A stretch of DNA of 64,000 bases from Escherichia coli (GTDB lineage Bacteria > Pseudomonadota > Gammaproteobacteria > Enterobacterales > Enterobacteriaceae), in assembly GCF_050920415.1 (NCBI RefSeq), contig NZ_CP169309.1. The stretch is one strand, 5' to 3'. The notes below the pieces were generated by a model. It was not told the DNA's origin. It worked only from the letters and a program-made list of their open reading frames with translations, and ran no database searches. This document shows, in pieces, positions 6,454 through 58,131 of the stretch. Both the position numbers and the translations under genes were made by a program. Position 1 is the first letter of the stretch. Each line of letters starts with the position of its first letter.

Positions 6454-9249
6454 ATGGAGATAATTATGAGAAACCTCTGTTTCTTACTGACGTTAGTGGC
6501 AACTCTGTTGCTCCCCGGGCGACTGATTGCCGCCGCCTTACCGCAGGATGAAAAGTTAATTACCGGGCAACTGGACAATGGCTTGCGATACATGATTTAT
6601 CCGCATGCTCAACCAAAGGATCAGGTAAATTTATGGCTGCAAATTCATACCGGTTCATTGCAGGAAGAAGACAATGAGCGCGGTGTGGCTCATTTTGTAG
6701 AACATATGATGTTTAACGGCACAAAAACATGGCCGGGTAATAAAGTCATCGAAACATTTGAGTCAATGGGCCTGCGTTTTGGTCGCGATGTTAATGCCTA
6801 TACCAGCTATGACGAAACGGTGTACCAAGTAAGTTTGCCGACTACGCAGAAACAAAATCTGCAACAAGTGATGGCAATCTTCAGTGAATGGAGTAATGCC
6901 GCAACCTTTGAGAAACTTGAAGTAGACGCTGAACGCGGCGTAATTACTGAGGAATGGCGTGCATATCAGGATGCGAAATGGCGTACATCTCAGGCGCGCC
7001 GCCCTTTTCTTTTGGCAAATACACGTAATTTAGACCGTGAACCTATCGGCCTGATGGATACTGTTGCCACAGTCACACCGGCACAATTGCGCCAGTTTTA
7101 TCAACGCTGGTATCAACCCAATAATATGACCTTTATTGTGGTCGGCGATATCGACAGTAAAGAAGCGCTGGCGCTGATAAAGGATAATTTAAGTAAGCTC
7201 CCGGCTAACAAAGCAGCTGAAAATCGCGTCTGGCCGACAAAAGCCGAAAACCACCTGCGCTTTAATATCATTAATGATAAAGAAAACCGGGTGAACGGCA
7301 TCGCACTCTATTATCGCCTGCCAATGGTGCAAGTGAGCGATGAGCAAAGCTTTATCGAACAAGCTGAATGGAGCATGTTGGTTCAGCTGTTCAATCAACG
7401 TCTGCAGGAACGTATACAGTCGGGCGAGTTGAAGACTATTTCTGGTGGCACTGCGCGCAGCGTTAAAATTGCACCCGATTATCAGTCGCTGTTTTTCCGT
7501 GTAAATGCACGTGACAATAATATGCAGGATGCTGCGAATGCATTAATGGCAGAGTTGGCAACCCTCGATCAACATGGTTTTTCTGCTGAAGAACTCGACG
7601 ATGTTAAAACTACCCGCCTAACCTGGCTGAAAAATGCGGTTGATCAGCAAGCTGAACGCGATTTACGTATGCTGACCAGTCGCCTGGCGTCCAGCTCGTT
7701 AAATAATACGCCGTTCTTGTCGCCGGAAGAGACATACCAACTTTCGAAACGTCTGTGGCCGCAAATTACCGTGCAAAGTCTGGCGGAAAAATGGCAGCAG
7801 CTAAGAAAGAACCAGGACGCATTTTGGGAGCAAATGGTGAATAACGAGGTTGCAGCCAACAAAGCATTATCTCCTGCGGCTATCCTGGCGCTGGAAAAAG
7901 AGTACGCCAACAAAAAGCTGGCAGCTTACATCTTCCCTGGCAGAAATTTATCGTTAACAGTAGACGCTGACCCACAGGCGGAAATTAGCAGTAAAGAAAC
8001 ACTGGCTGAGAATCTGACATCATTAACACTTTCTAATGGTGCCAGGGTTATTCTGGCAAAATCAGCGGGTGAAGAGCAAAAGCTACAAATTATTGCCGTA
8101 TCTAATAAAGGTGATTTAAGTTTCCCTGCGCAGCAAAAATCACTTATCGCGCTGGCAAATAAAGCGGTGAGTGGCAGCGGCGTTGGTGATCTCTCCTCTT
8201 CCAGCCTGAAACGCTGGAGTGCGGAAAACTCGGTAACCATGAGCAGCAAAGTCAGTGGGCTGAATACGTTGCTCTCCGTGAGCGCGCGGGCTAATAATCC
8301 TGAACCTGGTTTCCAGTTGATTAACCAGCGAATCACTCACAGCACGATTAATGACAATATTTGGGCATCGCTACAAAATGCTCAAATTCAGGCGTTGAAA
8401 ACGCTCGACCAGCGTCCAGCAGAGAAATTCGCCCAGCAGATGTATGAGAAGCGCTATGCTGATGACCGTACGAAATTACTGCAAGAAAAACAGATTGCAC
8501 AATTTACTGCCGCAGACGCGCTGGCAGCCGATCGCCAGTTATTTTCATCTCCAGCGGATATCACGTTTGTCGTTGTCGGTAATGTCGCAGAAGACAAACT
8601 TCTGCCGTTAATTACGCGTTACTTAGGATCAATAAAACACTCTGATTCGCCATTAGCCGCAGGTAAACCATTAACTCGCGCGACGGACAACGCATCGGTT
8701 ACAGTAAAAGAACAAAATGAACCTGTGGCACAGGTTTCACAGTGGAATCGTTATGATTCCCGGACACCTGTAAATCTGGAGACGCGTATGGCGCTGGATG
8801 CCTTTAACGTTGCCCTGGCTAAAGATCTGCGCATTAATATTCGTGAACAGGCATCTGGGGCATACAGCGTTTCTTCTCGCCTCTCGGTTGATCCTCAGGC
8901 CAAAGATATCACCCATTTGCTGGCTTTTACTTGTCAACCAGAACGGCATGAAGAACTGTTAGCGTTAGCGAATGAAGTGATGGTTAAGCGTCTGGCTAAA
9001 GGGATCAGAAAGCAAGAACTGAACGAATACCAGCAAAACGTTCAGCGTAGCCTCGATATCCAACAGCGTAGCGTTCAACAATTAGCGAACACCATTGTAA
9101 ATAGTCTTATTCAATATGACGATCCTGCCGCATGGACTGCGCAGGAGCAATTATTGAAACAAATGACGGTAGATAATGTTAACACTACGGTTAAACAATA
9201 TCTTTCTCATCCGGTGAATACCTTTACCGGAGTATTACTACCAAAATAA
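6454..9249 (+). CDS. pqqL: Periplasmic M16 (pitrilysin-family) zinc peptidase
   Basis: 931-aa ORF with signal peptide and inverted zinc-binding motif HFVEH (HxxEH). Confidence 0.9.
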   Translation: MEIIMRNLCFLLTLVATLLLPGRLIAAALPQDEKLITGQLDNGLRYMIYPHAQPKDQVNLWLQIHTGSLQEEDNERGVAHFVEHMMFNGTKTWPGNKVIETFESMGLRFGRDVNAYTSYDETVYQVSLPTTQKQNLQQVMAIFSEWSNAATFEKLEVDAERGVITEEWRAYQDAKWRTSQARRPFLLANTRNLDREPIGLMDTVATVTPAQLRQFYQRWYQPNNMTFIVVGDIDSKEALALIKDNLSKLPANKAAENRVWPTKAENHLRFNIINDKENRVNGIALYYRLPMVQVSDEQSFIEQAEWSMLVQLFNQRLQERIQSGELKTISGGTARSVKIAPDYQSLFFRVNARDNNMQDAANALMAELATLDQHGFSAEELDDVKTTRLTWLKNAVDQQAERDLRMLTSRLASSSLNNTPFLSPEETYQLSKRLWPQITVQSLAEKWQQLRKNQDAFWEQMVNNEVAANKALSPAAILALEKEYANKKLAAYIFPGRNLSLTVDADPQAEISSKETLAENLTSLTLSNGARVILAKSAGEEQKLQIIAVSNKGDLSFPAQQKSLIALANKAVSGSGVGDLSSSSLKRWSAENSVTMSSKVSGLNTLLSVSARANNPEPGFQLINQRITHSTINDNIWASLQNAQIQALKTLDQRPAEKFAQQMYEKRYADDRTKLLQEKQIAQFTAADALAADRQLFSSPADITFVVVGNVAEDKLLPLITRYLGSIKHSDSPLAAGKPLTRATDNASVTVKEQNEPVAQVSQWNRYDSRTPVNLETRMALDAFNVALAKDLRINIREQASGAYSVSSRLSVDPQAKDITHLLAFTCQPERHEELLALANEVMVKRLAKGIRKQELNEYQQNVQRSLDIQQRSVQQLANTIVNSLIQYDDPAAWTAQEQLLKQMTVDNVNTTVKQYLSHPVNTFTGVLLPK

Positions 9250-11165: not shown

Positions 11166-12701
11166 ATGGCTACATCAGTACAGACAGGTAAAGCTAAGCA
11201 GCTCACATTACTCGGATTTTTTGCCATAACGGCATCGATGGTAATGGCTGTTTATGAATACCCTACCTTCGCAACATCGGGCTTTTCATTAGTCTTCTTC
11301 CTGCTTTTAGGCGGGATTTTATGGTTTATTCCCGTGGGGCTTTGTGCTGCGGAAATGGCCACCGTCGACGGCTGGGAAGAAGGTGGTGTCTTCGCCTGGG
11401 TATCAAATACTCTGGGGCCGAGATGGGGGTTTGCAGCGATCTCATTTGGCTATCTGCAAATCGCCATCGGTTTTATTCCAATGCTCTATTTCGTGTTAGG
11501 GGCACTCTCCTACATCCTGAAATGGCCAGCGTTGAATGAAGACCCCATTACCAAAACTATTGCAGCACTCATCATTCTTTGGGCGCTGGCATTAACACAG
11601 TTTGGTGGCACGAAATACACGGCGCGAATTGCTAAAGTTGGCTTCTTCGCCGGTATCCTGTTACCTGCATTTATTTTGATCGCATTAGCAGCTATTTATC
11701 TGCACTCCGGTGCTCCCGTTGCTATCGAAATGGATGCGAAAACCTTCTTCCCTGACTTCTCTAAAGTCGGCACCCTGGTTGTGTTTGTTGCCTTCATTTT
11801 GAGTTATATGGGGGTAGAAGCTTCCGCAACCCACGTCAATGAAATGCGCAATCCCGGTCGCGATTATCCGCTGGCGATGTTACTGCTGATGGTGGCGGCA
11901 ATCTGCTTAAGCTCTGTTGGCGGCTTGTCTATTGCGATGGTTATTCCGGGTAATGAAATCAACCTCTCCGCAGGGGTAATGCAAACCTTTACCGTTCTGA
12001 TGTCACATGTGGCACCGGAAATTGAGTGGACGGTTCGCGTGATCTCCGCACTGCTGTTGCTGGGTGTTCTGGCGGAAATCGCTTCCTGGATTGTTGGCCC
12101 TTCTCGCGGGATGTATGTCACCGCGCAGAAAAACCTGCTGCCAGCGGCGTTCGCTAAAATGAACAAAAATGGCGTACCGGTAACGCTGGTTATTTCGCAG
12201 CTGGTGATTACTACTATCGCGTTGATCATCCTCACCAATACCGGTGGCGGTAACAATATGTCCTTCCTGATTGCCCTGGCGCTGACGGTGGTGATTTATC
12301 TGTGTGCTTATTTCATGCTGTTTATTGGCTACATTGTGTTAGTGCTTAAACATCCTGACTTAAAACGCACATTTAATATCCCTGGTGGTAAAGGGGTGAA
12401 ACTGGTCGTGGCAATTGTCGGTCTGCTGACTTCAATTATGGCGTTTATTGTTTCCTTCCTGCCGCCGGATAATATCCAGGGGGACTCTACCGATATGTAT
12501 GTCGAATTACTGGTCGTTAGTTTCCTGGTGGTACTTGCCCTGCCCTTCATTCTCTATGCTGTTCATGATCGTAAAGGCAAAGCGAATACCGGCGTATCTC
12601 TGGAACCAATCAACAGCCAGAACGCTCCGAAAGGTCACTTCTTCCTGCACCCGCGTGCACGTTCACCACACTATATTGTGATGAATGACAAGAAACACTA
12701 A
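11166..12701 (+). CDS. gadC: Glutamate:GABA antiporter
   Basis: 511-aa polytopic membrane protein directly downstream of gadB. Confidence 0.95.
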
Positions 12702-48143: not shown

Positions 48144-49037
48144 ATGAAACCGCAGGTTTATCACGTCGATGCTTTTACCGCTCAACCGTTTCGCGGCAAT
48201 TCTGCCGGTGTTGTTTTTCCCGCCGATAAACTTAGCGAAGCGCAAATGCAGCTTATCGCCCGCGAATTAGGTCATTCGGAAACTGCTTTTCTGCTGCACA
48301 GCGACGACAGCGATGTACACGTTCGATACTTTACGCCAACGGTTGAAGTGCCAATTTGCGGTCACGCAACGGTGGCTGCGCACTATGTACGTTCAAAGGT
48401 ATTAGGTTTGGGAAATTGCACGGTATGGCAAACGTCGCTGGCAGGAAAACATCGCGTGACTATCGAAAAGCACAACGATGATTATCGTATTTCGCTGGAA
48501 CAAGGTACGCCAGGCTTTGAGCCACCGCTGGAAGGTGAAACACGTGCAGCGATTATCAACGCGCTTCATCTCACTGAAGACGATATTCTGCCAGGCTTGC
48601 CAATTCAGGTGGCAACCACAGGACACTCAAAAGTGATGATCCCGTTGAAACCAGAAGTGGATATCGACGCTCTTTCGCCTGACCTTGCTGCGCTGACCGC
48701 AATCAGCAAGCAGATTGGCTGCAATGGTTTTTTCCCGTTCCAGATCCGCCCTGGCAAAAATGAAACCGATGGTCGCATGTTCTCACCTGCGATTGGTATT
48801 GTGGAAGATCCGGTGACCGGGAATGCCAATGGCCCGATGGGCGCATGGTTGGTACATCACAACTTACTACCCCACGATGGCAGCGTGTTGCGTGTTAAAG
48901 GCCATCAGGGGCGCGCACTGGGGCGTGACGGCGTGATTGATGTGACGGTGACAATTCGAGATAACCAACCGGAGAAAGTCACCATTTCTGGCACAGCGGT
49001 GATTCTTTTCCATGCTGAATGGGCCATTGATTTTTGA
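48144..49037 (+). CDS. yddE: PhzF-family isomerase-like protein
   Basis: 297-aa ORF, synteny narV-yddE-nhoA. Confidence 0.9.
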   Translation: MKPQVYHVDAFTAQPFRGNSAGVVFPADKLSEAQMQLIARELGHSETAFLLHSDDSDVHVRYFTPTVEVPICGHATVAAHYVRSKVLGLGNCTVWQTSLAGKHRVTIEKHNDDYRISLEQGTPGFEPPLEGETRAAIINALHLTEDDILPGLPIQVATTGHSKVMIPLKPEVDIDALSPDLAALTAISKQIGCNGFFPFQIRPGKNETDGRMFSPAIGIVEDPVTGNANGPMGAWLVHHNLLPHDGSVLRVKGHQGRALGRDGVIDVTVTIRDNQPEKVTISGTAVILFHAEWAIDF

Positions 49038-49039
49038 TA

Positions 49040-49130
49040 CCGTTGCCTGATGCGCTTCGCTTATCAGGCCTACAACCGGGCTAATGTGGGCCGGTTGTAG
49101 GCGTTTACGCCGCATCCGGCCCCTGGCACA
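49040..49130. repeat. REP/BIME cluster
   Basis: GCCTGATGCGCTTCGCTTATCAGGCCTACAA ... GTAGGCGTTTACGCCGCATCCGGC between convergent yddE and nhoA. Confidence 0.8.
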
Positions 49131-49132
49131 AA

Positions 49133-49978
49133 CTATTTCCCCGCCTCCGGATGCGTATCAAACGCCGCCATCACCAACGCCAGTTCATCCACAGTAAAGC
49201 CATGCTTTGCGTCATCTACGCCCAGACCAAACTGCTCCTGCATCACGGCATATAACGACGCCACATCCGCTAGATTCCGCTGCTCCACTGCATGTCCATT
49301 TTCATAATGGGTGAAATGAAAATTGGTCAGTGTCAGTTTGCCACCGTCCGGCAAATGGCGGCACATCAGCAAATGATGGCGAAAATGCGATTGCGGCCAG
49401 TGCGCCGACCAGAAATTCCCCATCACATAATCACTTTGTTGTTGTTCACAGAGATCAAAACGGTACATCGACTGCCAGTGCTGATGATGATTAAACTGCA
49501 AAATCCAGTCGTTCCCTTCCTGTAACAGCCGATATTCGCCATGTGGCGTTGTTTGCGCGATATCCGCCACTAAACGAATCGGCGCAGTCAAAGTCTGCCC
49601 ACCGAAACCGACATCGGCAATCCAGTGTTCGCCTTCCAGCTCCACCAACAACAAACGATGGGTACGCGGCGGTAATGCTGGCGGATTAGATAACACTACG
49701 CGCCCTAACAGACTGCGTACCTGAAAACCCAGCTCGCGTAACACCCGCTCAAACACGCCATTCTGCTCAAAGCAGTAACCACCACGCCGGGCGAGCACCA
49801 ATTTCTCTTCCAGCGATTGATCATCAAGCTGCATTTCTCTCGGCAGCAAAACATCGAGATTTTCAAATGGAATGGTGCAATTGTGTTTCAGGTGTAATGC
49901 GCGCAGCGTTTCGATATTGACCGCAGCCGCTCCCGACCAGTTAATGCGGGTAAAATAGTGATTCAGAATGGGCGTCAT
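49133..49978 (-). CDS. nhoA: Arylamine N-acetyltransferase / N-hydroxyarylamine O-acetyltransferase
   Basis: 281-aa minus-strand ORF with NAT catalytic Cys context (RRGGYCFEQN). Confidence 0.95.
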   Translation of the reverse strand: MTPILNHYFTRINWSGAAAVNIETLRALHLKHNCTIPFENLDVLLPREMQLDDQSLEEKLVLARRGGYCFEQNGVFERVLRELGFQVRSLLGRVVLSNPPALPPRTHRLLLVELEGEHWIADVGFGGQTLTAPIRLVADIAQTTPHGEYRLLQEGNDWILQFNHHQHWQSMYRFDLCEQQQSDYVMGNFWSAHWPQSHFRHHLLMCRHLPDGGKLTLTNFHFTHYENGHAVEQRNLADVASLYAVMQEQFGLGVDDAKHGFTVDELALVMAAFDTHPEAGK

Positions 49979-50152
49979 CAGGCGTTTCCGTTTGTGGTTT
50001 TCTCAATTTATAACCTGGAATAGACGCCGCACCGGCTATTTTGTGCGATCGCGGACATGCATCACGTTCGCAAATCGCCAATCCCGTTAATTTCGTTACT
50101 TATTGCGTTACGAGCTACGCTTTTAAAACACCCTTCTTAGCGAGGCGATACC

Positions 50153-50722
50153 GTGAGCCGATTCATCCCCGTCGAATTACACCATGCCAGCCGTCTGTTA
50201 AACCACGGCCCCACAGTTTTGATAACAACTTTTGATGAAAAATCACAGCGACGTAATGTGATGGCTGCGGCCTGGTCGATGCCGGTGGAGTTTGAACCGC
50301 CACGTGTGGCGATTGTGGTAGATAAATCGACATGGACCAGGGAGTTGATTGAGCGTAACGGTAAATTTGGCATCGTTATCCCGGGCGTTGCGGCGACTAA
50401 CTGGACGTGGGCGGTGGGAAGTGTGTCGGGTCGTGAAGAAGATAAATTTAATTGCTATGGCATTCCGGTTGTGAAAGGTCCGGTGCTTGGATTGCCGCTG
50501 GTTGAAGAGAAATGTCTGGCATGGATGGAGTGTCGATTGCTACCAGCGACTTCTGCGCAAGAAAAATACGATACGCTATTTGGCGAAGTGGTATCGGCAG
50601 CGGCAGACGCACGAGTATTTGTCGAAGGCCGCTGGCAGTTTGATGATGACAAACTCAATACACTACATCATTTAGGTGCTGGCACGTTTGTTACCAGCGG
50701 CAAGCGAGTTGCCGCTGGTTAA
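50153..50722 (+). CDS. yddH: Flavin reductase-like protein
   Basis: 189-aa ORF, divergent from nhoA. Confidence 0.9.
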   Translation: MSRFIPVELHHASRLLNHGPTVLITTFDEKSQRRNVMAAAWSMPVEFEPPRVAIVVDKSTWTRELIERNGKFGIVIPGVAATNWTWAVGSVSGREEDKFNCYGIPVVKGPVLGLPLVEEKCLAWMECRLLPATSAQEKYDTLFGEVVSAAADARVFVEGRWQFDDDKLNTLHHLGAGTFVTSGKRVAAG

Positions 50723-50760
50723 AGAGAGAGCGTTCAGAATTCTGTGTGACGTTAAAAATT

Positions 50761-51156
50761 CTACAGCGTCATCACATTATTCAGCCGCCCTTCAAAATAA
50801 ATAGCTAACTGTGACAATGTCAAATTCCAGCTCTGAACTGGCATTGTCCATTTTTTCTGCGCATTCATCAGTCCCAGGTAAAGTAGCTTCAACAGGCTGT
50901 TTTCATTCGGGAAGGCACCTTTTGTTTTGGTCAGCTTTCTGAACTGCCGGTGAACTGACTCGATAGCATTGGTCGTGTAAATCACCTTACGGATACCCGC
51001 CGGATAACGGAAGTAATGCGACAGATTTTCCCATTTTCGCCGCCACGACTGAAGCACCACCGGATACTGCTGACCCCATTTCGCCTCCAGCTCGTCCAGC
51101 GCTGTTTCTGCCGCCTCCTTCGATACCGCACGGTACACCGGTTTCAGGTCGGCCAT
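50761..51156 (-). pseudogene. IS256-family (Mutator-like) transposase, C-terminal remnant
   Basis: 131-aa ORF matching only the C-terminal region of IS256-family transposases (...YTTNAIESVHRQFRKLTKTKGAFPNE.SLLKLLYL...); N-terminal two-thirds absent. Confidence 0.7.
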
Positions 51157-51170
51157 GAGCCAGGGAAAGA

Positions 51171-52307
51171 TTACGAAAGCCCGCTCCCCGCAAGGACTGA
51201 CGCCAGATACTTTCTGTCCATGGCTGCTTTTCGCATCTTACGTCTTAACCCTGCCTTGAATACCTTATCATTCGTCAAAATATTAATAGCGATGTGCCGT
51301 ATCCCTGAAAATAATTCTGCTGCATTTCCTCTTCTTATTTTGCAGTCGTCTTCATTCATTACCACGTCCAGACGCCAGTGCAGCTTATTCTCCACGTGCC
51401 AGTGATTTCGGATCGCTGTGGCGAACTTCTCTGCGGTTAAATCAGCAGAACTGATATAATATCTGACCGTCATTTCTGGCTCTTTCTTTTGTTCTGCTAT
51501 TATTGACCGAAAGGAGACTGCCACGCATAATTTCTTCAGACCTTTCCATTCAAACGTGAAATCAATAAGTTCATCAGGGACATCGCAAACAATATGAAGA
51601 CGGATTTCTTCTCTGCCGTGACTCTTTTCACTAATTGCGTAACTGTCATGCTCTGGATTATTTAATTCTTTCAGCGGAAATTTTTCCTCGAAGGCTTTAT
51701 TTAGCCGCCCCTGGTTTCCTTTTACAGCGAATAAATAATCACCTCCCTGTTTTTGTATCTTCTCTGCAATATCTTTCTGGCAACCCATCGCATCAGTTGT
51801 GATGATTTTTCCTTTAATATCCAGCATGTTAAGAAGTTCTGGGATAGCTGTAATCTCATTGGATTTCTCATCCGTCTTGATCTGTCCGATGACCAGACTG
51901 TGCATTGTTGAGAACGCACTAATGACATGAATCGCTCCCCTGCGGCGACTCTTGTCATAAGAGTGCCGGAGCGTTTTTCCATCAATTGCAATGACGTCTT
52001 TATCATCTGAAGAATGACATTCACGCATCCGGTTAATAAAGCATTCGTGAAATTTTGCAGGACTGATACATGATACAACTCTGGCAATAGTATCGTGAAC
52101 AGGAATACCATTTTCAAAATCACCATATTGCTTCAAAAAATCGAGATGAGTTTCCCCGAAATCCTCTATATCTTCCCAGCCTTCTGCACCCGAAATAACG
52201 GCGCAAATAGTCAACAGTAGAATATCCGATAATTTATGCTCCACTTTCCAGGCTTGTCTGTAATCGGGGATAATAGAAATATGTTCCATCAATTTTTTAA
52301 GTTCCAT
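51171..52307 (-). CDS. ydcC: ISAs1-family transposase (Rhs H-repeat-associated protein)
   Basis: 378-aa [40 protein letters not shown]..., the characteristic H-rpt ORF of E. coli Rhs elements. Confidence 0.9.
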
Positions 52308-52439
52308 TTTGTTCTCCTTAATTATGTAAGGAGTATTTGATCATGTATAAGCAATAAAAAACAGCTTCAGGTAATGAGGAATATCTCAATTTTTAAACAT
52401 AAAATGCGAATTGTTTAGTACAAAAAAGCAGCGTTAAGT

Positions 52440-54323
52440 GAGTAGGCCACCGGAACCTCCCCGACAGCCTCTCGCAGAACCGTACGTGAAACTCTCGCTT
52501 CATACGGCTCCCGTCAGGCAAACGCGCTTCCTGGTCCTGCTTTCCAGTGGGCAAACAACTCCGGCTTCTCTTTTGACAGTCTTTCCATTAGCTGACACGC
52601 CTTCGTCTTTCTATACCACAGGGTTTTATATTTCTTTCTCGCCCACGCAATCAGCGTCAGATTAATATATCTGCATACTTTCTTCATCGCTGATTTGTGG
52701 TATCTCGCGTAATAATTCAGCCACCCCGATATTATCAGATTCAGCCACTTCGCAATATCTTCGAGACTCATCTCCACCCTGCGTCTGATCCACAGTTTCC
52801 TGAGTTTTCCAATCATGCCTTTCTGCGCACGGTTACTCGCCGCCGGGCTGAAACTCGTAAAGAGGTTTCCCCGCCGGTGGTTACGTGCTCTTCGCGCTCT
52901 GAACGTATACCCCAGAAAATCAAACTGCACTGTTTCATGGTTCGCCTGTCGTTCGCTGTCTTTGCAGTAAACTATTTTCGTTTTCTCCGGATGTAATTCC
53001 AGTCCACATTCCTGAAAACGTTTTGCCAGCTTATTCAGTAATTCCTCTGCCTGTTGTTTACTGCCACAATGAATTAATCCATCATCTGCATAACGGCACC
53101 AGGGAATTTCCGGATAATGTAACGTCAGCCATTTATCAAACACATAGTGCAGAAATAAATTCGCCAGTACCGGGCTGATGACTCCACCCTGTGGCGTACC
53201 TTTATTTCTTTCCTTCAGTGTTCCATCCGGCATCTGCACCGGCGCTGTCAGCCAGCGGCGAATAGACAGTCTTACCCATTTATCCGCACAATGTTTATCT
53301 ACTGCCCTGAGTAATAAATCGTGGGGGATATTATCGAATAACCCTTTAATATCAAACTCAAGACACCAGTCGTATTGCCAGCAACGTTTTCTGGTGACTG
53401 CTATTGCATCCAGCGCTGATTTTCCATGCCGGTATCCGTATGAATCATTCAGGAAATAACGCTCCACTAATGGTTCAAACGTTACCAGCACCGTCATCTG
53501 CGCTATTCTATCGCTTACTGTCGGTATTCCTAAAAGTCTTTTGCTGCCATCCTTCTTCGGAATTTCCACCGCACGCACTGGCGGCGGCATCCAGCTTCCC
53601 GACGATAACCTGTTCCAGATTTTGTACAGATTTCCTTTCAGATCCCGCTCAAAATCTTTCAGCGTCTGGTTATCCACTCCGGCAGCTCCGGCATTCGCCT
53701 TTATCCGCCGGTACGCTTCCACCACATGCAATTTACTGACCTGAAACGGTTTTGTCTGTTCACACACAGTCTCCTCCTGCCTACAGTTGGGCTGTGATGC
53801 AGACTGCCCGACGCTGTCCCTTCGCTCCACGTTCATTACAAACGCTTCCTCACTACTACGAACAGCTCTGCCCCGGTTTCGCACATCGATACTCTCATAC
53901 TCATAATTTCGGTTATTTGTAATTCTCTCTTGACATTGCGACGACCGGTTCCCGTAGTTCCTGCAAAGAGCCCGATACAGCGTCATGCCTGCTATACACC
54001 GGACATCATTCACGCAGCATTCGGAATTCACCCGTAAATTAATCCCGGCGGTATCACGAAACCTCCGGTTTTGATGTCACTTAGGACTAACGACGTTTCA
54101 ACACAGGTTCGGGTTTACTCATCTCACTGTATCTCACATAGGATCAGATCTCGTCTGATCGTTCCCCCTGCGCTCACTACCATGGCTCTTTACCACAGCA
54201 GCCGGGGTTGTTTGGGACCGACTTCCGACAGCAGATCCCGGTGGGCCTGCCACCATCTCTTCACAAGCTTATGCTTATTACATGCAAAACGTCCCGTTTT
54301 GCATCTTTGTGCCTACGGCACAC
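52440..54323 (-). mobile_element. Group II intron (boundaries approximate)
   Basis: On the minus strand: 5' GUGUG-type start near 54323, internal RT/maturase ORF, and a canonical domain V hairpin GAGCCGTATGAAGCGAGAGTTTCACGTACGGTTC (plus coordinates 52477..52510) followed by a domain VI-like helix. Confidence 0.8.
52514..54031 (-). CDS. Group II intron-encoded reverse transcriptase/maturase
   Basis: 505 aa with RT motifs including YADD (RYADDGLIHC) and a C-terminal maturase (domain X) region; stop codon abuts domain V. Confidence 0.9.
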   Translation of the reverse strand: MNSECCVNDVRCIAGMTLYRALCRNYGNRSSQCQERITNNRNYEYESIDVRNRGRAVRSSEEAFVMNVERRDSVGQSASQPNCRQEETVCEQTKPFQVSKLHVVEAYRRIKANAGAAGVDNQTLKDFERDLKGNLYKIWNRLSSGSWMPPPVRAVEIPKKDGSKRLLGIPTVSDRIAQMTVLVTFEPLVERYFLNDSYGYRHGKSALDAIAVTRKRCWQYDWCLEFDIKGLFDNIPHDLLLRAVDKHCADKWVRLSIRRWLTAPVQMPDGTLKERNKGTPQGGVISPVLANLFLHYVFDKWLTLHYPEIPWCRYADDGLIHCGSKQQAEELLNKLAKRFQECGLELHPEKTKIVYCKDSERQANHETVQFDFLGYTFRARRARNHRRGNLFTSFSPAASNRAQKGMIGKLRKLWIRRRVEMSLEDIAKWLNLIISGWLNYYARYHKSAMKKVCRYINLTLIAWARKKYKTLWYRKTKACQLMERLSKEKPELFAHWKAGPGSAFA

Positions 54324-54398
54324 CGTGATCTTTCCCTGGGAATAAAAGAAAGTTCACTGTAGTTATTAATGATATTTACTTCTTCATTCATATTTTAC

Positions 54399-54788
54399 CT
54401 ATTTAGAAAAACATATGCTCGCTTCCTCCGTGATAGAGATAACATAATCAGGTATTATTTCAAATACAGGAGTAATTAAGTATGGTCTGGAGTAACCATT
54501 ATTAAAATCCACACTATCAACTAAAAAACTAATAATGCTATCTTTGTCAGAAACAATCAATGATTCTCGGTAATAAGTTTTTTTACCTTTATTTCTCACA
54601 ATATTCAGTGCAATGTAGAATCTATCGTCTATCATAATGTCAGAAAGATTTTTAACATGATCTACCCAAGTGATGCTTCGACATTGCTCTTTTTTATTGA
54701 GCATTGCAAAAAAAATATCTTCTTTCACTTTCTCACTTGGTAACTGACTTAAAGGTTTTATACCTGTAAATATAAATTTAGTTTTCAT
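54399..54788 (-). CDS. Hypothetical protein (AT-rich accessory ORF D)
   Basis: 129-aa ORF, no recognisable family from sequence alone; 72 bp upstream of the intron 5' end. Confidence 0.5.
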   Translation of the reverse strand: MKTKFIFTGIKPLSQLPSEKVKEDIFFAMLNKKEQCRSITWVDHVKNLSDIMIDDRFYIALNIVRNKGKKTYYRESLIVSDKDSIISFLVDSVDFNNGYSRPYLITPVFEIIPDYVISITEEASICFSK

Positions 54789-54818
54789 ATTGGCTAATTC
54801 GTTTGAAGAGTTGCTACT

Positions 54819-55241
54819 TTATTCAATCCAGTAAGCTAGTCGCTCTCCAGAACTTAGATTTTCCCTTTTGTAATAAAATACCGTATCGAAATTAAGTGAA
54901 ATGTTTGCCGCTATAACTTTAAACTGTAATATTGACTCGGAATAAAACTCGAGAATAATATTAGCATCATTATCATCGTTAATTATTTTTAGTTTCATAA
55001 AATCATCAAGAGGATCACAAGTCCAGTGCGTATCACCACTCATGTAAGATGGTGCATTTATTATTATTTCAAAATTATGATAGTACGAAAGATCACTACT
55101 GCCAACGATAATTAATCGCCCATTACTATAGAGATAAATTTCAAAATCTATCCAACAGTTATTTCTGTAATTACGCCTAATTTCGTCCACTACATTTTGT
55201 TGTTTCATTTTGGATTCTTGTAAAAGATAATTACTACGCAT
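54819..55241 (-). CDS. Hypothetical protein (accessory ORF C)
   Basis: 140-aa acidic ORF, low GC, no TM segments. Confidence 0.5.
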   Translation of the reverse strand: MRSNYLLQESKMKQQNVVDEIRRNYRNNCWIDFEIYLYSNGRLIIVGSSDLSYYHNFEIIINAPSYMSGDTHWTCDPLDDFMKLKIINDDNDANIILEFYSESILQFKVIAANISLNFDTVFYYKRENLSSGERLAYWIE

Positions 55242-55285
55242 TGACTAAGTGAAATATTATCTTCTATAGATCGTATCTGTAAAAT

Positions 55286-55618
55286 TTAAAATGTGTTAAC
55301 TTCACTTCTTAATAATACAAATTCCTCCAGGCTTAATATTTTATTTTTTAATTCATCATGCCTGATCGTATCATTGATATAGAGAAGATAAGTATACTCA
55401 GGATAATCGACCTCATCCACTACGCCATCCAAAACATCATAATTTTCTTTTAGAAGAAAATGTTCATGTCTTTTGTCTCCGGGCAATAAATAGATTCCGC
55501 CATAATAAAGGCTTTCTTTCTCTTTAAATGTGATTTTTATCAGATCTTCTAACATCTTCTGCGCATCATATATTTCCACCCCATAATATCCATACAAGTC
55601 ATAATAACCCATTCCCAT
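55286..55618 (-). CDS. Hypothetical protein (accessory ORF B)
   Basis: 110-aa ORF with ATG start preceded by AGGTGA RBS. Confidence 0.55.
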   Translation of the reverse strand: MGMGYYDLYGYYGVEIYDAQKMLEDLIKITFKEKESLYYGGIYLLPGDKRHEHFLLKENYDVLDGVVDEVDYPEYTYLLYINDTIRHDELKNKILSLEEFVLLRSEVNTF

Positions 55619-55639
55619 TTCACCTGTTTGAATTTGTAT

Positions 55640-55840
55640 TCATTCACCCTCACGGGATTTACCAATTACATTCAGCAGTGGCATTAAATGTAATGTTACA
55701 AAACTATCACATCTTTCCTGAATTATCATTTGGATATAATGTTTTGTGTCATTGCTACCATATTCAGCCATATAGAATATTACTGCGTCCATTATATCTC
55801 TTTCATAGTTTTCTAATGCATCAACAAATACATCAACCAA
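55640..55840 (-). CDS. Hypothetical small ORF (accessory ORF A), possibly a remnant
   Basis: 66-aa frame with only a TTG start and no clear RBS; the frame is closed by stops just upstream; in the same frame as ORF B, separated by one TGA. Confidence 0.3.
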   Translation of the reverse strand: MVDVFVDALENYERDIMDAVIFYMAEYGSNDTKHYIQMIIQERCDSFVTLHLMPLLNVIGKSREGE

Positions 55841-56050
55841 AGTATTAACGTCTTTACTTGATGGATGCTCTGAAAGATTATTTTCATTTGTGAGAATCTG
55901 AATCGTACCATTACGATTCTCTTAGAAATATCATTAAATACGCTACCGCCCTACCCTGATAGACTGGCCCCCTGAATCTCCAGACAACCAGTATCACTTA
56001 AATAAGTGATAGTCTTAATACTAGTTTTTAGACTAGTCATTGGAGAACAG

Positions 56051-56416
56051 ATGATTGATGTCTTAGGGCCGGAGAAACGCAGACGGCGTACCACACAGGA
56101 AAAGATCGCAATTGTTCAGCAGAGCTTTGAACCGGGGATGACGGTCTCCCTCGTTGCCCGGCAACATGGTGTAGCAGCCAGCCAGTTATTTCTCTGGCGT
56201 AAGCAATACCAGGAAGGAAGTCTTACTGCTGTCGCCGCCGGAGAACAGGTTGTTCCTGCCTCTGAACTTGCTGCCGCCATGAAGCAGATTAAAGAACTCC
56301 AGCGCCTGCTCGGCAAGAAAACGATGGAAAATGAACTCCTCAAAGAAGCCGTTGAATATGGACGGGCAAAAAAGTGGATAGCGCACGCGCCCTTATTGCC
56401 CGGGGATGGGGAGTAA
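56051..56416 (+). CDS. insC: IS2 transposase OrfA
   Basis: 121-aa product [47 protein letters not shown]... Confidence 0.95.
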
Positions 56417-57279
56417 GCTTAGTCAGCCGTTGTCTCCGGGTGTCGCGTGCGCAGTTGCACGTCATTCTCAGACGAACCGATGACTGGATGGATGGCCGCC
56501 GCAGTCGTCACACTGATGATACGGATGTGCTTCTCCGTATACACCATGTTATCGGAGAGCTGCCCACGTATGGTTATCGTCGGGTATGGGCGCTGCTTCG
56601 CAGACAGGCAGAACTTGATGGTATGCCTGCGATCAATGCCAAACGTGTTTACCGGATCATGCGCCAGAATGCGCTGTTGCTTGAGCGAAAACCTGCTGTA
56701 CCGCCATCGAAACGGGCACATACAGGCAGAGTGGCCGTGAAAGAAAGCAATCAGCGATGGTGCTCTGACGGGTTCGAGTTCTGCTGTGATAACGGAGAGA
56801 GACTGCGTGTCACGTTCGCGCTGGACTGCTGTGATCGTGAGGCACTGCACTGGGCGGTGACTACTGGCGGCTTCAACAGTGAAACAGTACAGGACGTCAT
56901 GCTGGGAGCGGTGGAACGCCGCTTCGGCAACGATCTTCCGTCGTCTCCAGTGGAGTGGCTGACGGATAATGGTTCATGCTACCGGGCTAATGAAACACGC
57001 CAGTTCGCCCGGATGTTGGGACTTGAACCGAAGAACACGGCGGTGCGGAGTCCGGAGAGTAACGGAATAGCAGAGAGCTTCGTGAAAACGATAAAGCGTG
57101 ACTACATCAGTATCATGCCCAAACCAGACGGGTTAACGGCAGCAAAGAACCTTGCAGAGGCGTTCGAGCATTATAACGAATGGCATCCGCATAGTGCGCT
57201 GGGTTATCGCTCGCCACGGGAATATCTGCGGCAGCGGGCTTGTAATGGGTTAAGTGATAACAGATGTCTGGAAATATAG
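56374..57279 (+). CDS. insD: IS2 transposase OrfB (DDE integrase domain)
   Basis: 301-aa ORF overlapping insC in the -1 frame, typical IS3-family arrangement. Confidence 0.95.
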
Positions 57280-57513
57280 GGGCAAATCCACCTGATAACA
57301 TGATCTGCACTGCGTTATCATATCGACATGTTTCTCTATATGCGAAGAGATGTTTTATTTTCGGATTAAATTAAATTGATATTCAATATAAAATACAGAA
57401 TCACATCAGCGACATAAATAGTTGTAACAACTTCAATTACCATTCATAGCAAACAAATAGACGTCCAGTTAACTTTGCCGATGATTTATTAACATTAATC
57501 TCCGGCATTGTTG

Positions 57514-58131
57514 TTAAATAATGGCATTCCTTTTTAGTACTTCTTGTAACTTTGGTATCTGACATACAGCATCAGCAATCGCACTGATATTCGTGGCATT
57601 ATCCTGAAACCATTCATGCCCAGGCCCCCATGTGCGCATTGTGCAAAGATAACAGTCCACCAGCGTGAGTTGCTCTCCAAACACATACGGTTCAGCAGTC
57701 AATTGTGAATTCAGCCAGATATAAAGCGATTTGCGATATTCAATAACATTCTTCTTCAACTGTTCAGGTGCGTCGGGGACCCAACGTTCAGGGTAATCGG
57801 CGAAGGTAAACGTTGGATAGACATTAGCGACCAGCCAGACCAATAGCCGTTGAAACTGCTGACGTTCGGCACGCCCAACTGGTGGCGCAAGATCCGGGCT
57901 GCGGTCGAGCACCATTAGCGCAATAGCCGCGCTTTCGGTCATAATCTCGCCATTTTCCAGCGCCAGTGTCGGAACCTGACATAGCGGATTGAGCTTTTGC
58001 AATAGCTCACGCGCAATACCTTCACTGTCAAAACCGCTGACATCAACAAACTTATAGGGAATATCTGCCAGCGTAAGCATGAGTTCGCTGATTGTAGAAC
58101 CCCATCCCGGCACGCCATACATCTTTAACAT
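57514..58131 (-). CDS. yncG: Glutathione S-transferase homolog
   Basis: 205-aa minus-strand ORF; divergent from ansP. Confidence 0.85.
   Translation of the reverse strand: MLKMYGVPGWGSTISELMLTLADIPYKFVDVSGFDSEGIARELLQKLNPLCQVPTLALENGEIMTESAAIALMVLDRSPDLAPPVGRAERQQFQRLLVWLVANVYPTFTFADYPERWVPDAPEQLKKNVIEYRKSLYIWLNSQLTAEPYVFGEQLTLVDCYLCTMRTWGPGHEWFQDNATNISAIADAVCQIPKLQEVLKRNAII

Follow-up and report, generated by a model that had tools for sequence, protein, structure and literature searches.

Three of four small open reading frames (ORFs A, B, and C) in the window analyzed here, a stretch of 64,000 nucleotides from Escherichia coli (contig NZ_CP169309.1 of assembly GCF_050920415.1), probably form an orphan, immunity-only array without toxins that belongs to the Rhs/type VI secretion system (T6SS) and contact-dependent growth inhibition (CDI) systems and is located in the hotspot between yncG and yddH, as judged from comparative sequence analysis; the fourth, ORF D, is left unexplained. 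An earlier note on this DNA had proposed, from position, that all four may be orphan immunity genes or else uncharacterized small proteins. The first of these proposals is supported by the location of the array at the RhsE site and, for A, B, and C, by relatives behind toxin tails, but not for D beyond its position, as no toxin-adjacent relative of D was found. Elsewhere, members of the three families are encoded directly downstream of a toxin domain on the same strand (A, 6 to 11 bp behind it; C, 4-bp overlap or adjacency; B, 4-bp overlap), and each family co-varies with one type of toxin, namely, C with Ntox30, A with tails that are 65% identical, and B with tails that are 43.6% identical but have a weak immunity link in locus L036. 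The co-occurrence with Rhs or CDI toxin tails that was to be expected of immunity genes is accordingly seen for A (Rhs), B (CDI and Rhs), and C (Ntox30), but not for D.

The four ORFs are co-directional on the minus strand and tightly packed, with spacings of 21, 44, and 30 bp as listed, and the GC content of the array is 30.8% compared to 48.1% for the whole window. All of them encode small, presumably cytoplasmic proteins of 66 to 129 amino acids (aa) without a transmembrane helix (Kyte-Doolittle maximum over 19 residues, 1.16). The initial description of the ORFs was thus confirmed by the ORF list, the GC content, and the hydropathy, apart from their acidity, which applies to A to C (pI 4.5 to 4.8) but not to D (pI 7.7). 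In RefSeq, the same four genes are hypothetical proteins in strain MFDS1022581, whose region is otherwise 100% identical to the window.

Relatives of ORFs A, B, and C behind toxin domains

ORF C (positions 54819 to 55208, minus strand) appears to be an orphan immunity gene of the family that partners Ntox30. The reading frame is open up to 55241, and the most likely start is Met12 (55208), which yields a protein of 129 aa, in accordance with the RefSeq call of 129 aa and with the distant homologs (50 to 57% identity), all of which have 127 to 129 aa. Genes of this family follow Ntox30 domains in five independent contexts, and all five toxin-linked contexts carry Ntox30. In Pectobacterium polaris, the homolog overlaps by 4 bp with the end of a gene for a 1729-aa Rhs protein, which is located in a VgrG-PAAR-DUF4123 cluster and whose C terminus matches Pfam Ntox30. 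Metagenome contigs L006 and L007 encode an orphan Ntox30 ORF of 130 aa followed by a C homolog, and the 590-bp "gap" in front of the C homolog on contig L008 encodes an uncalled Ntox30 fragment. Within E. coli (sequence type 648 [ST648], FDAARGOS_497, and EM10-18-28), the gene order is VgrG, a DcrB-related (Eag-like) protein, a 1617-aa Rhs protein, a 129-aa gene, an rhs fragment, and ISAs1. The ST648-type 129-aa gene overlaps by 4 bp with the end of rhs, and its product is 55% identical to ORF C; the corresponding Rhs tail is 73% identical to that of Pectobacterium (Pfam Ntox30, E = 1.2e-11). In the E. coli Rhs protein WP_022645327.1, the Ntox30 tail comprises 152 aa, and the cognate immunity protein is WP_022645326.1. 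Ntox30 is a predicted metal-independent RNase for which no immunity family has been given (Zhang et al. 2012, PMC3482391), and ORF C and its relatives would fill this gap in the 2012 catalogue as well as in Pfam. ORF B was also considered as a toxin partner of C, but this pairing was rejected, since the relatives of C pair with Ntox30 and not with B.

A sensitive DNA search detected a C-like copy of 70% DNA identity in 121 of 5426 complete E. coli genomes, and Ntox30-tail DNA was likewise present in 121 complete genomes, at one place each. The accessions listed for the toxin-tail genomes overlap with those of the 121 genomes that have the 70% C-like copy. The genomes with a window-type array, 12 in number, also have one place each, and they are therefore taken to be devoid of the Ntox30 toxin, a conclusion that is drawn from the equal counts, the overlapping accessions, and the single place per genome at DNA-level sensitivity.

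ORF A (55640 to 55840, minus strand; 66 aa with a TTG start) is best understood as an N-terminally damaged copy of a 90-aa immunity-family gene. In strains PT62 and GF4-3, the A-family gene has 90 aa and an ATG start. Compared to these alleles, the window, MFDS1022581, and E. fergusonii have in common a 1-bp deletion near 55887, which removes the ATG at ~55911 and throws the first ~8 codons out of frame, so that a TTG-initiated remnant without a clear ribosome-binding site is left; the previous suspicion of a decayed fragment is confirmed by this deletion. An exhaustive HMMER search of a library of 1.84 billion proteins with the intact A protein retrieved two related clusters. Members of the first (P0044, E. 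marmotae; 43% identity, E = 2e-14) begin 6 bp past an Rhs ORF, and those of the second (P0045, Providencia, Kluyvera, Citrobacter, and Enterobacter; 29% identity) begin 11 bp past an orphan Rhs tail. The toxin tails of the two sets of loci are 65% identical to each other, and a homologous tail, again followed by an A-family gene, is present on an rhs fragment of enteropathogenic E. coli (EPEC) E2348/69. Pfam assigned no family to this tail, the only match being PASTA at E = 0.05, and its sequence suggests a so far undescribed toxin domain of Rhs proteins. Its end, ...HIPM(R/S)PGR, faintly resembles the THIP end of Ntox30 (L016, 9540 to 9994; L020, 9078 to 9989; L039, ~6900 to 7460), and at the DNA level the tail occurs in 22 complete E. 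coli genomes.

ORF B (55286 to 55618, minus strand; 110 aa [108 to 110 aa]) is preceded by an AGGTGA Shine-Dalgarno sequence, as previously noted, and is a probable orphan immunity gene. While an indexed protein search returned only Escherichia copies, local jackhmmer and blastp searches of fetched loci recovered a 55%-identical homolog of 105 aa that is always the last gene of the DcrB-PAAR-Rhs orphan array of E. marmotae. Two relatives with 35 to 37% identity were obtained by tblastn of B against plasmid records, and none was found by a pattern scan of representative genomes. On a Rhizobium leguminosarum plasmid, the B relative is the second small gene past a CdiA-like hemagglutinin and is located behind an unannotated 74-aa ORF, which was read by eye as DUF4926-like and had no profile match. 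The Pseudomonas aeruginosa relative (35% identity) was placed by exact-sequence look-up in a chromosomal CdiA orphan array next to exoT, where it neighbors a Gln_amidase/Imm35 cassette and has a 4-bp overlap with the stop of a toxin fragment of 81 to 143 aa. This fragment is 43.6% identical (E = 2e-23) to the orphan Rhs tail of E. marmotae L036, which is preceded by a DPIGL...DPFGL core boundary and followed after 1 bp by a 118-aa gene. No match was obtained in NCBIfam for the P. aeruginosa fragment or in the PDB for the L036 tail. Given a direct pairing with a toxin in one case and a weaker one in another, B seems well placed among the immunity genes of polymorphic toxins.

Some further features of the toxin loci were observed. 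The B-partner toxin tail (L043, 7540 to 7971; L036, 1172 to 1603), which is unannotated in the P. aeruginosa record, contains the motif GS...GRVSDFD(I/V)A, which is reminiscent of the signature of a nucleotidyltransferase fold. The CDI locus of Rhizobium (L042, 7725 to 8276) and the Rhs locus of E. marmotae (L032, 248 to 6318) have in common the order of a DUF6883-type toxin tail, a small DUF4926-type gene, and a B-family gene, with DUF4926 assigned by Pfam only in L032 and, in E. marmotae, an IS256 between the latter two genes; this order may be a coincidence or a three-gene module. In all E. marmotae arrays examined, the B homolog is directly preceded by IS256. The toxin/immunity cassettes are repeatedly accompanied by a gene for a SymE-like type I toxin, which lies at most a few kilobases downstream in the opposite orientation. 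It is located directly past the cassettes in Pectobacterium, E. marmotae, and E2348/69 and 1 to 1.3 kb away in Providencia and P. aeruginosa (L004, 10447 to 10602; L013 to L016, 10331 to 10546; L017 to L020, ~11286 to 11540; L039, 7777 to 7977; L049, 8202 to 8462).

The RhsE site and the distribution of the array

According to a comparison with K-12, the array sits between yncG/ansP and yddH/nhoA and thus at the RhsE site. In K-12, this site contains yncH, the rhsE pseudogene, ydcD, two H-repeats, and pptA, and what the two strains have in common there is limited to yncG, yddH, and the H-repeat ydcC. Read along the minus strand, the locus in the window consists of yncG, followed by IS2, A, B, C, D, a group II intron, the H-repeat ISEc1, an IS256 fragment, and yddH. 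The conserved flanks of the hotspot, yncG on the left (57514 to 58131, minus strand) and yddH on the right (50153 to 50722, plus strand), are annotated in both locus L001 and K-12. The group II intron (52442 to 54338, minus strand; Rfam RF01999 and RF00029), whose ltrA gene is annotated in L001, is inserted 60 bp past the stop of ORF D, and the H-repeat ISEc1 (ydcC; 51160 to 52426, minus strand) is 97% identical to ydcC of the K-12 RhsE locus, so that the reported position of the array directly upstream of these two elements is corroborated by the Rfam matches and the ydcC identity. In E. fergusonii (L021), the same junction of ORF D and H-repeat exists without the intron. The H-repeat is adjoined by the C-terminal fragment of an IS256-family transposase (50761 to 51156).

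H-repeats are the usual 3' companions of Rhs elements, and an ISAs1 element likewise closes the ST648 Rhs-Ntox30 locus. A complete Rhs element comprises a GC-rich core with YD repeats and a PxxxxDPxGL boundary, a toxin tail, a downstream ORF, and an H-repeat. In the window, only the H-repeat and downstream-ORF part of such an element is present, without an rhs core. When two Rhs proteins and the tails of two toxins were compared with the 64 kb by tblastn, nothing was revealed below E = 0.7 for the rhs core or the partner toxins, in agreement with the earlier note's statement that no cognate toxin is present. The orphan status refers to the window for the array as a whole and to the genome level, in a DNA-level check, for C only.

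The window-type array was found in 12 of the 5426 complete E. coli genomes, one with A-B-C-D and 11 with A-B-C followed by unrelated genes, and none of the 12 has an Rhs gene at the site. E. fergusonii carries A-B-C-D and the H-repeat at the same site with 97 to 98% identity to the window. This identity to E. fergusonii extends over yncG and the array (segment from 49000 to 58131), while yncG matches its K-12 counterpart at only 87% identity, and yncG and nhoA-yddH are only 87 to 90% identical to K-12 and PT62, which is far under normal within-species identity. These values suggest either that the segment was exchanged with E. fergusonii or that it represents an old divergent haplotype. The IS2 copy (55962 to 57290, plus strand), which separates the array from yncG and is inserted ~120 bp from ORF A on its upstream side, is missing from MFDS1022581 and from E. 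fergusonii.

Other strains carry different cargo in the hotspot. At the same ansP-yddH site, E2348/69 has a truncated vgrG, the frameshifted rhs fragment, an A-family gene of 92 aa, and the symE-like gene. Among the cargo of PT62, GF4-3, the Escherichia-like metagenome contig L009, E. fergusonii, and E2348/69, a GNAT match and one T6SS immunity lipoprotein model were the only hits. The latter concerns E2348/69 (L039, 4004 to 4886), where the gene for a 176-aa protein containing an HExxH-like motif precedes that for a lipoprotein with a match to the "putative T6SS immunity periplasmic lipoprotein" model of NCBIfam (E = 5e-7), and the two are probably another effector/immunity pair. On L009 (3154 to 6434), two DUF3142 genes, a 531- to 565-aa protein, and a 159-aa protein are encoded on the opposite strand beside the D homolog. 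A literature search on rhsE/ydcD yielded nothing relevant, and a scan for promoters and terminators, with many promoter-like matches in the AT-rich DNA, was uninformative.

ORF D

ORF D (54399 to 54788, minus strand; 129 aa) is a real conserved gene, for which an immunity role may be proposed from its position. It is confined to E. fergusonii, a few E. coli and Escherichia sp. strains, and, at 70% identity, contig L009, where the homolog is also located in the yncG-yddH hotspot among small ORFs without Rhs. Searches with profiles, the PDB, tblastn, and pattern scans detected no family, fold, plasmid, phage, viral, or representative-genome relative. The silence of the word-indexed protein search is not strong evidence in this respect, since the same type of search missed the 55%-identical B homolog that was recovered by a local jackhmmer search. 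The AlphaFold model of D (pLDDT 65, i.e., marginal) has an alpha+beta fold without a significant structural neighbor.

There is a real, albeit lesser, chance that D is not an immunity gene but an unrelated small protein that landed in the hotspot, like the GNAT acetyltransferase and others in PT62-type strains. No D relative stands beside a toxin in any locus examined, the pI is neutral, and non-immunity cargo occurs in the hotspot of other strains. Moreover, the homology between PT62-type and window-type sequences breaks ~18 bp inside the start of D, which indicates a separate cassette or acquisition. On the other hand, D encodes a small cytoplasmic protein, belongs to the same tight, co-directional, and AT-rich array, and is flanked by an immunity-family gene and the H-repeat; its homolog in L009 is followed by a B-like fragment.

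Points against an immunity array and alternative explanations

Several results weigh against the interpretation of A to C as an immunity array. The identity to the toxin-linked relatives is only 27 to 55%, and immunity is usually allele specific, so that protection would be uncertain. None of the four ORFs belongs to the Imm, SMI1/KNR4, or SUKH families that the earlier note had suggested for a check: B, C, and D had no match to the curated immunity families of Pfam (Imm*, SUKH/SMI1_KNR4), or to Pfam at all, even at E ≤ 10, and the NCBIfam immunity models gave no meaningful match for any of the four. A PADLOC family was not assigned at a convincing level either (A versus NsnC, E = 0.0013 over 42 residues). 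The alignment of the 118-aa gene of L036 with the B-family hidden Markov model is end to end but weak (E = 0.0037 in 6872 ORFs). ORF D adds to these points, being neither linked to a toxin in any search or locus examined nor acidic. Structural comparisons were equally unproductive: profiles of each of the four families gave no usable match when searched against PDB sequences, the AlphaFold2 model of B (pLDDT 42) is unusable, and the predictions for B and D are too weak to model complexes. Furthermore, the search for a toxin remnant upstream of A found only noise, and the gaps of 21 to 77 bp between the genes leave no room for a remnant within the array. The claim that the genes were retained after loss of the toxin is therefore an inferred history and not a demonstrated one; either toxin fragments were cleanly deleted or the immunity genes were acquired alone.

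The condition of the genes must be added to this list and would suit the view, which we regard as rather unlikely, that these descendants of immunity genes have become inert relics of an Rhs element in decay, either silent or without function, and are on their way to being lost. A is frameshifted in the window, the A, B, and D alleles of E. fergusonii are often truncated, and truncations of these genes were also found in Escherichia sp. HH154_1D. The polymorphism ratios of B and D are relaxed (~0.5), and A shows zero synonymous versus two nonsynonymous changes; together with the frameshift and the truncated alleles, these ratios argue for weak selection on part of the array. The array is rare in E. 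coli, as the 12 genomes indicate, and bracketed by the inserted IS2 and intron. IS2 parts it from its native upstream DNA and could either silence the array or re-drive its expression. Purifying selection is nevertheless evident between diverged alleles. The ratio of nonsynonymous to synonymous substitution rates (dN/dS) between the window and the 93%-identical alleles of PT62/GF4-3 is 0.27 for A, 0.20 to 0.22 for B, and 0.14 to 0.17 for C, and that of D versus its 70%-identical homolog is 0.18. The polymorphism ratio of C (0.14) is near that of its housekeeping neighbor yncG (0.12). The window copies of B, C, and D are intact, and the array has been kept in two species at 97 to 98% identity.

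A toxin-antitoxin or anti-phage defense module, or prophage debris, is a very improbable source of the four genes. The signals in this direction are weak, namely, the above-mentioned NsnC match of A and PHROG matches of unknown function (E = 0.005 to 0.2), neither of which is credible. B relatives in plasmid records occur only at toxin loci, no relatives of D were obtained from the collections of phages, viruses, or plasmids, and a toxin-like partner is not present inside the array, whereas the adjacency of the A, B, and C families to Rhs/CDI toxins is strong. According to hhalign, none of the four families is related to another, which is expected for stacked cassettes of differing specificity. 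Finally, chance ORFs in AT-rich spacer DNA, which the missing family matches and the abundant promoter-like sequences might have suggested, are refuted by the conservation of all four ORFs in other genomes and of proteins across genera, by dN/dS values well below 1, and by the fact that stop codons are AT-rich, so that ORFs of 110 to 140 codons are unlikely in DNA of 31% GC.

Proposed function and significance

If the array consists of immunity genes, each of them would encode a small cytoplasmic protein of a distinct family, whose relatives are encoded right behind a specific C-terminal toxin domain and which would bind and block this toxin. C would act on Ntox30, the predicted RNase, A on an as yet unnamed Rhs toxin tail, although the window copy is crippled by the frameshift, and B on another unnamed toxin tail that is found in CDI and Rhs orphan cassettes. 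Since the window contains neither an rhs core nor such toxins, the genes, if expressed and acting, would protect only against toxins injected by neighbors, e.g., by ST648-type E. coli with Rhs-Ntox30, and this would presuppose cross-protection at 27 to 55% identity. A more far-reaching and distinctly speculative scenario is that the array is a maintained immunity-only defense cassette, the enterobacterial counterpart of the acquired interbacterial defense (AID) clusters, that is exchanged together with yncG, as one unit, between E. fergusonii and a small part of the E. coli strains and protects T6SS-poor strains against Rhs-Ntox30 and other attackers, and in which D founds a new immunity family directed at a toxin as yet unrecognized; we consider it unlikely in this full form.

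Three "hypothetical proteins" gain a concrete and testable role, and two unnamed toxin-tail/immunity pairs, those of the A and B partners, are exposed. Rhs-Ntox30 is present in ~2% of the complete E. coli genomes, while a separate 0.2% have the diverged antidote gene only. This split provides a competition experiment asking whether orphan immunity at 55% identity confers cross-protection.

Comparison with known systems

Orphan immunity genes have been documented for Rhs and CDI loci (Poole et al. 2011, PMC3150448; Koskiniemi et al. 2014, PMC3967940) and for the T6SS clusters of Vibrio cholerae and E. coli (PMC6730261). Orphan immunity at Rhs loci is thus already established, and our result is a useful annotation rather than a surprise. 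The array resembles the RhsI genes, i.e., YdcD behind K-12 rhsE and the CTI genes of the E. coli PAAR-Rhs-CT effectors (Ma et al. 2017, as summarized in PMC6730261), in its location at the RhsE site, in the small AT-rich ORFs between the Rhs region and the H-repeat, and in the A- and C-family members that are encoded right behind Rhs C-terminal toxin tails. It differs from them in the missing rhs core and toxin tail, in the presence of four genes in a row instead of one, and in the lack of sequence similarity to YdcD or to named Imm/SUKH families.

The displaced orphan cassettes that pile up 3' of the main rhs or cdiA gene (PMC3150448, PMC3967940) are comparable as well, and B-family genes occur in such arrays of P. 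aeruginosa and E. marmotae. Classical orphan cassettes have a toxin fragment before each immunity gene, in contrast to the short gaps of the window array, which contain none. The same applies to the orphan CdiA-CT/CdiI array of the P. aeruginosa CdiA (PA0041 type), which shares a B-family gene (35% identity) beside the Gln_amidase/Imm35 cassette, but in which toxin fragments are kept and delivery is by CDI rather than T6SS/Rhs.

Stacked immunity genes without effectors that are shared between lineages have also been described for the auxiliary T6SS clusters of V. cholerae, for which protection against attack by non-kin has been proposed (Kirchberger et al. 2017, as cited in PMC6730261). The Escherichia array, in contrast to these, is located outside a T6SS cluster. 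Stacks of effector-less immunity genes shared between lineages are reportedly also found in the Bacteroidales AID clusters, for which Ross et al. reportedly proposed non-kin protection in 2019. An AID cluster is understood as an immunity-only cluster on a mobile element with demonstrated protection against effectors of non-kin. The window array is far smaller than these clusters, and no recombinase-type mobile element or dedicated mobility gene was identified for it. Like them, it is probably immunity-only, and it is common to different lineages, as exemplified by its counterpart in E. fergusonii with 97 to 98% identity.

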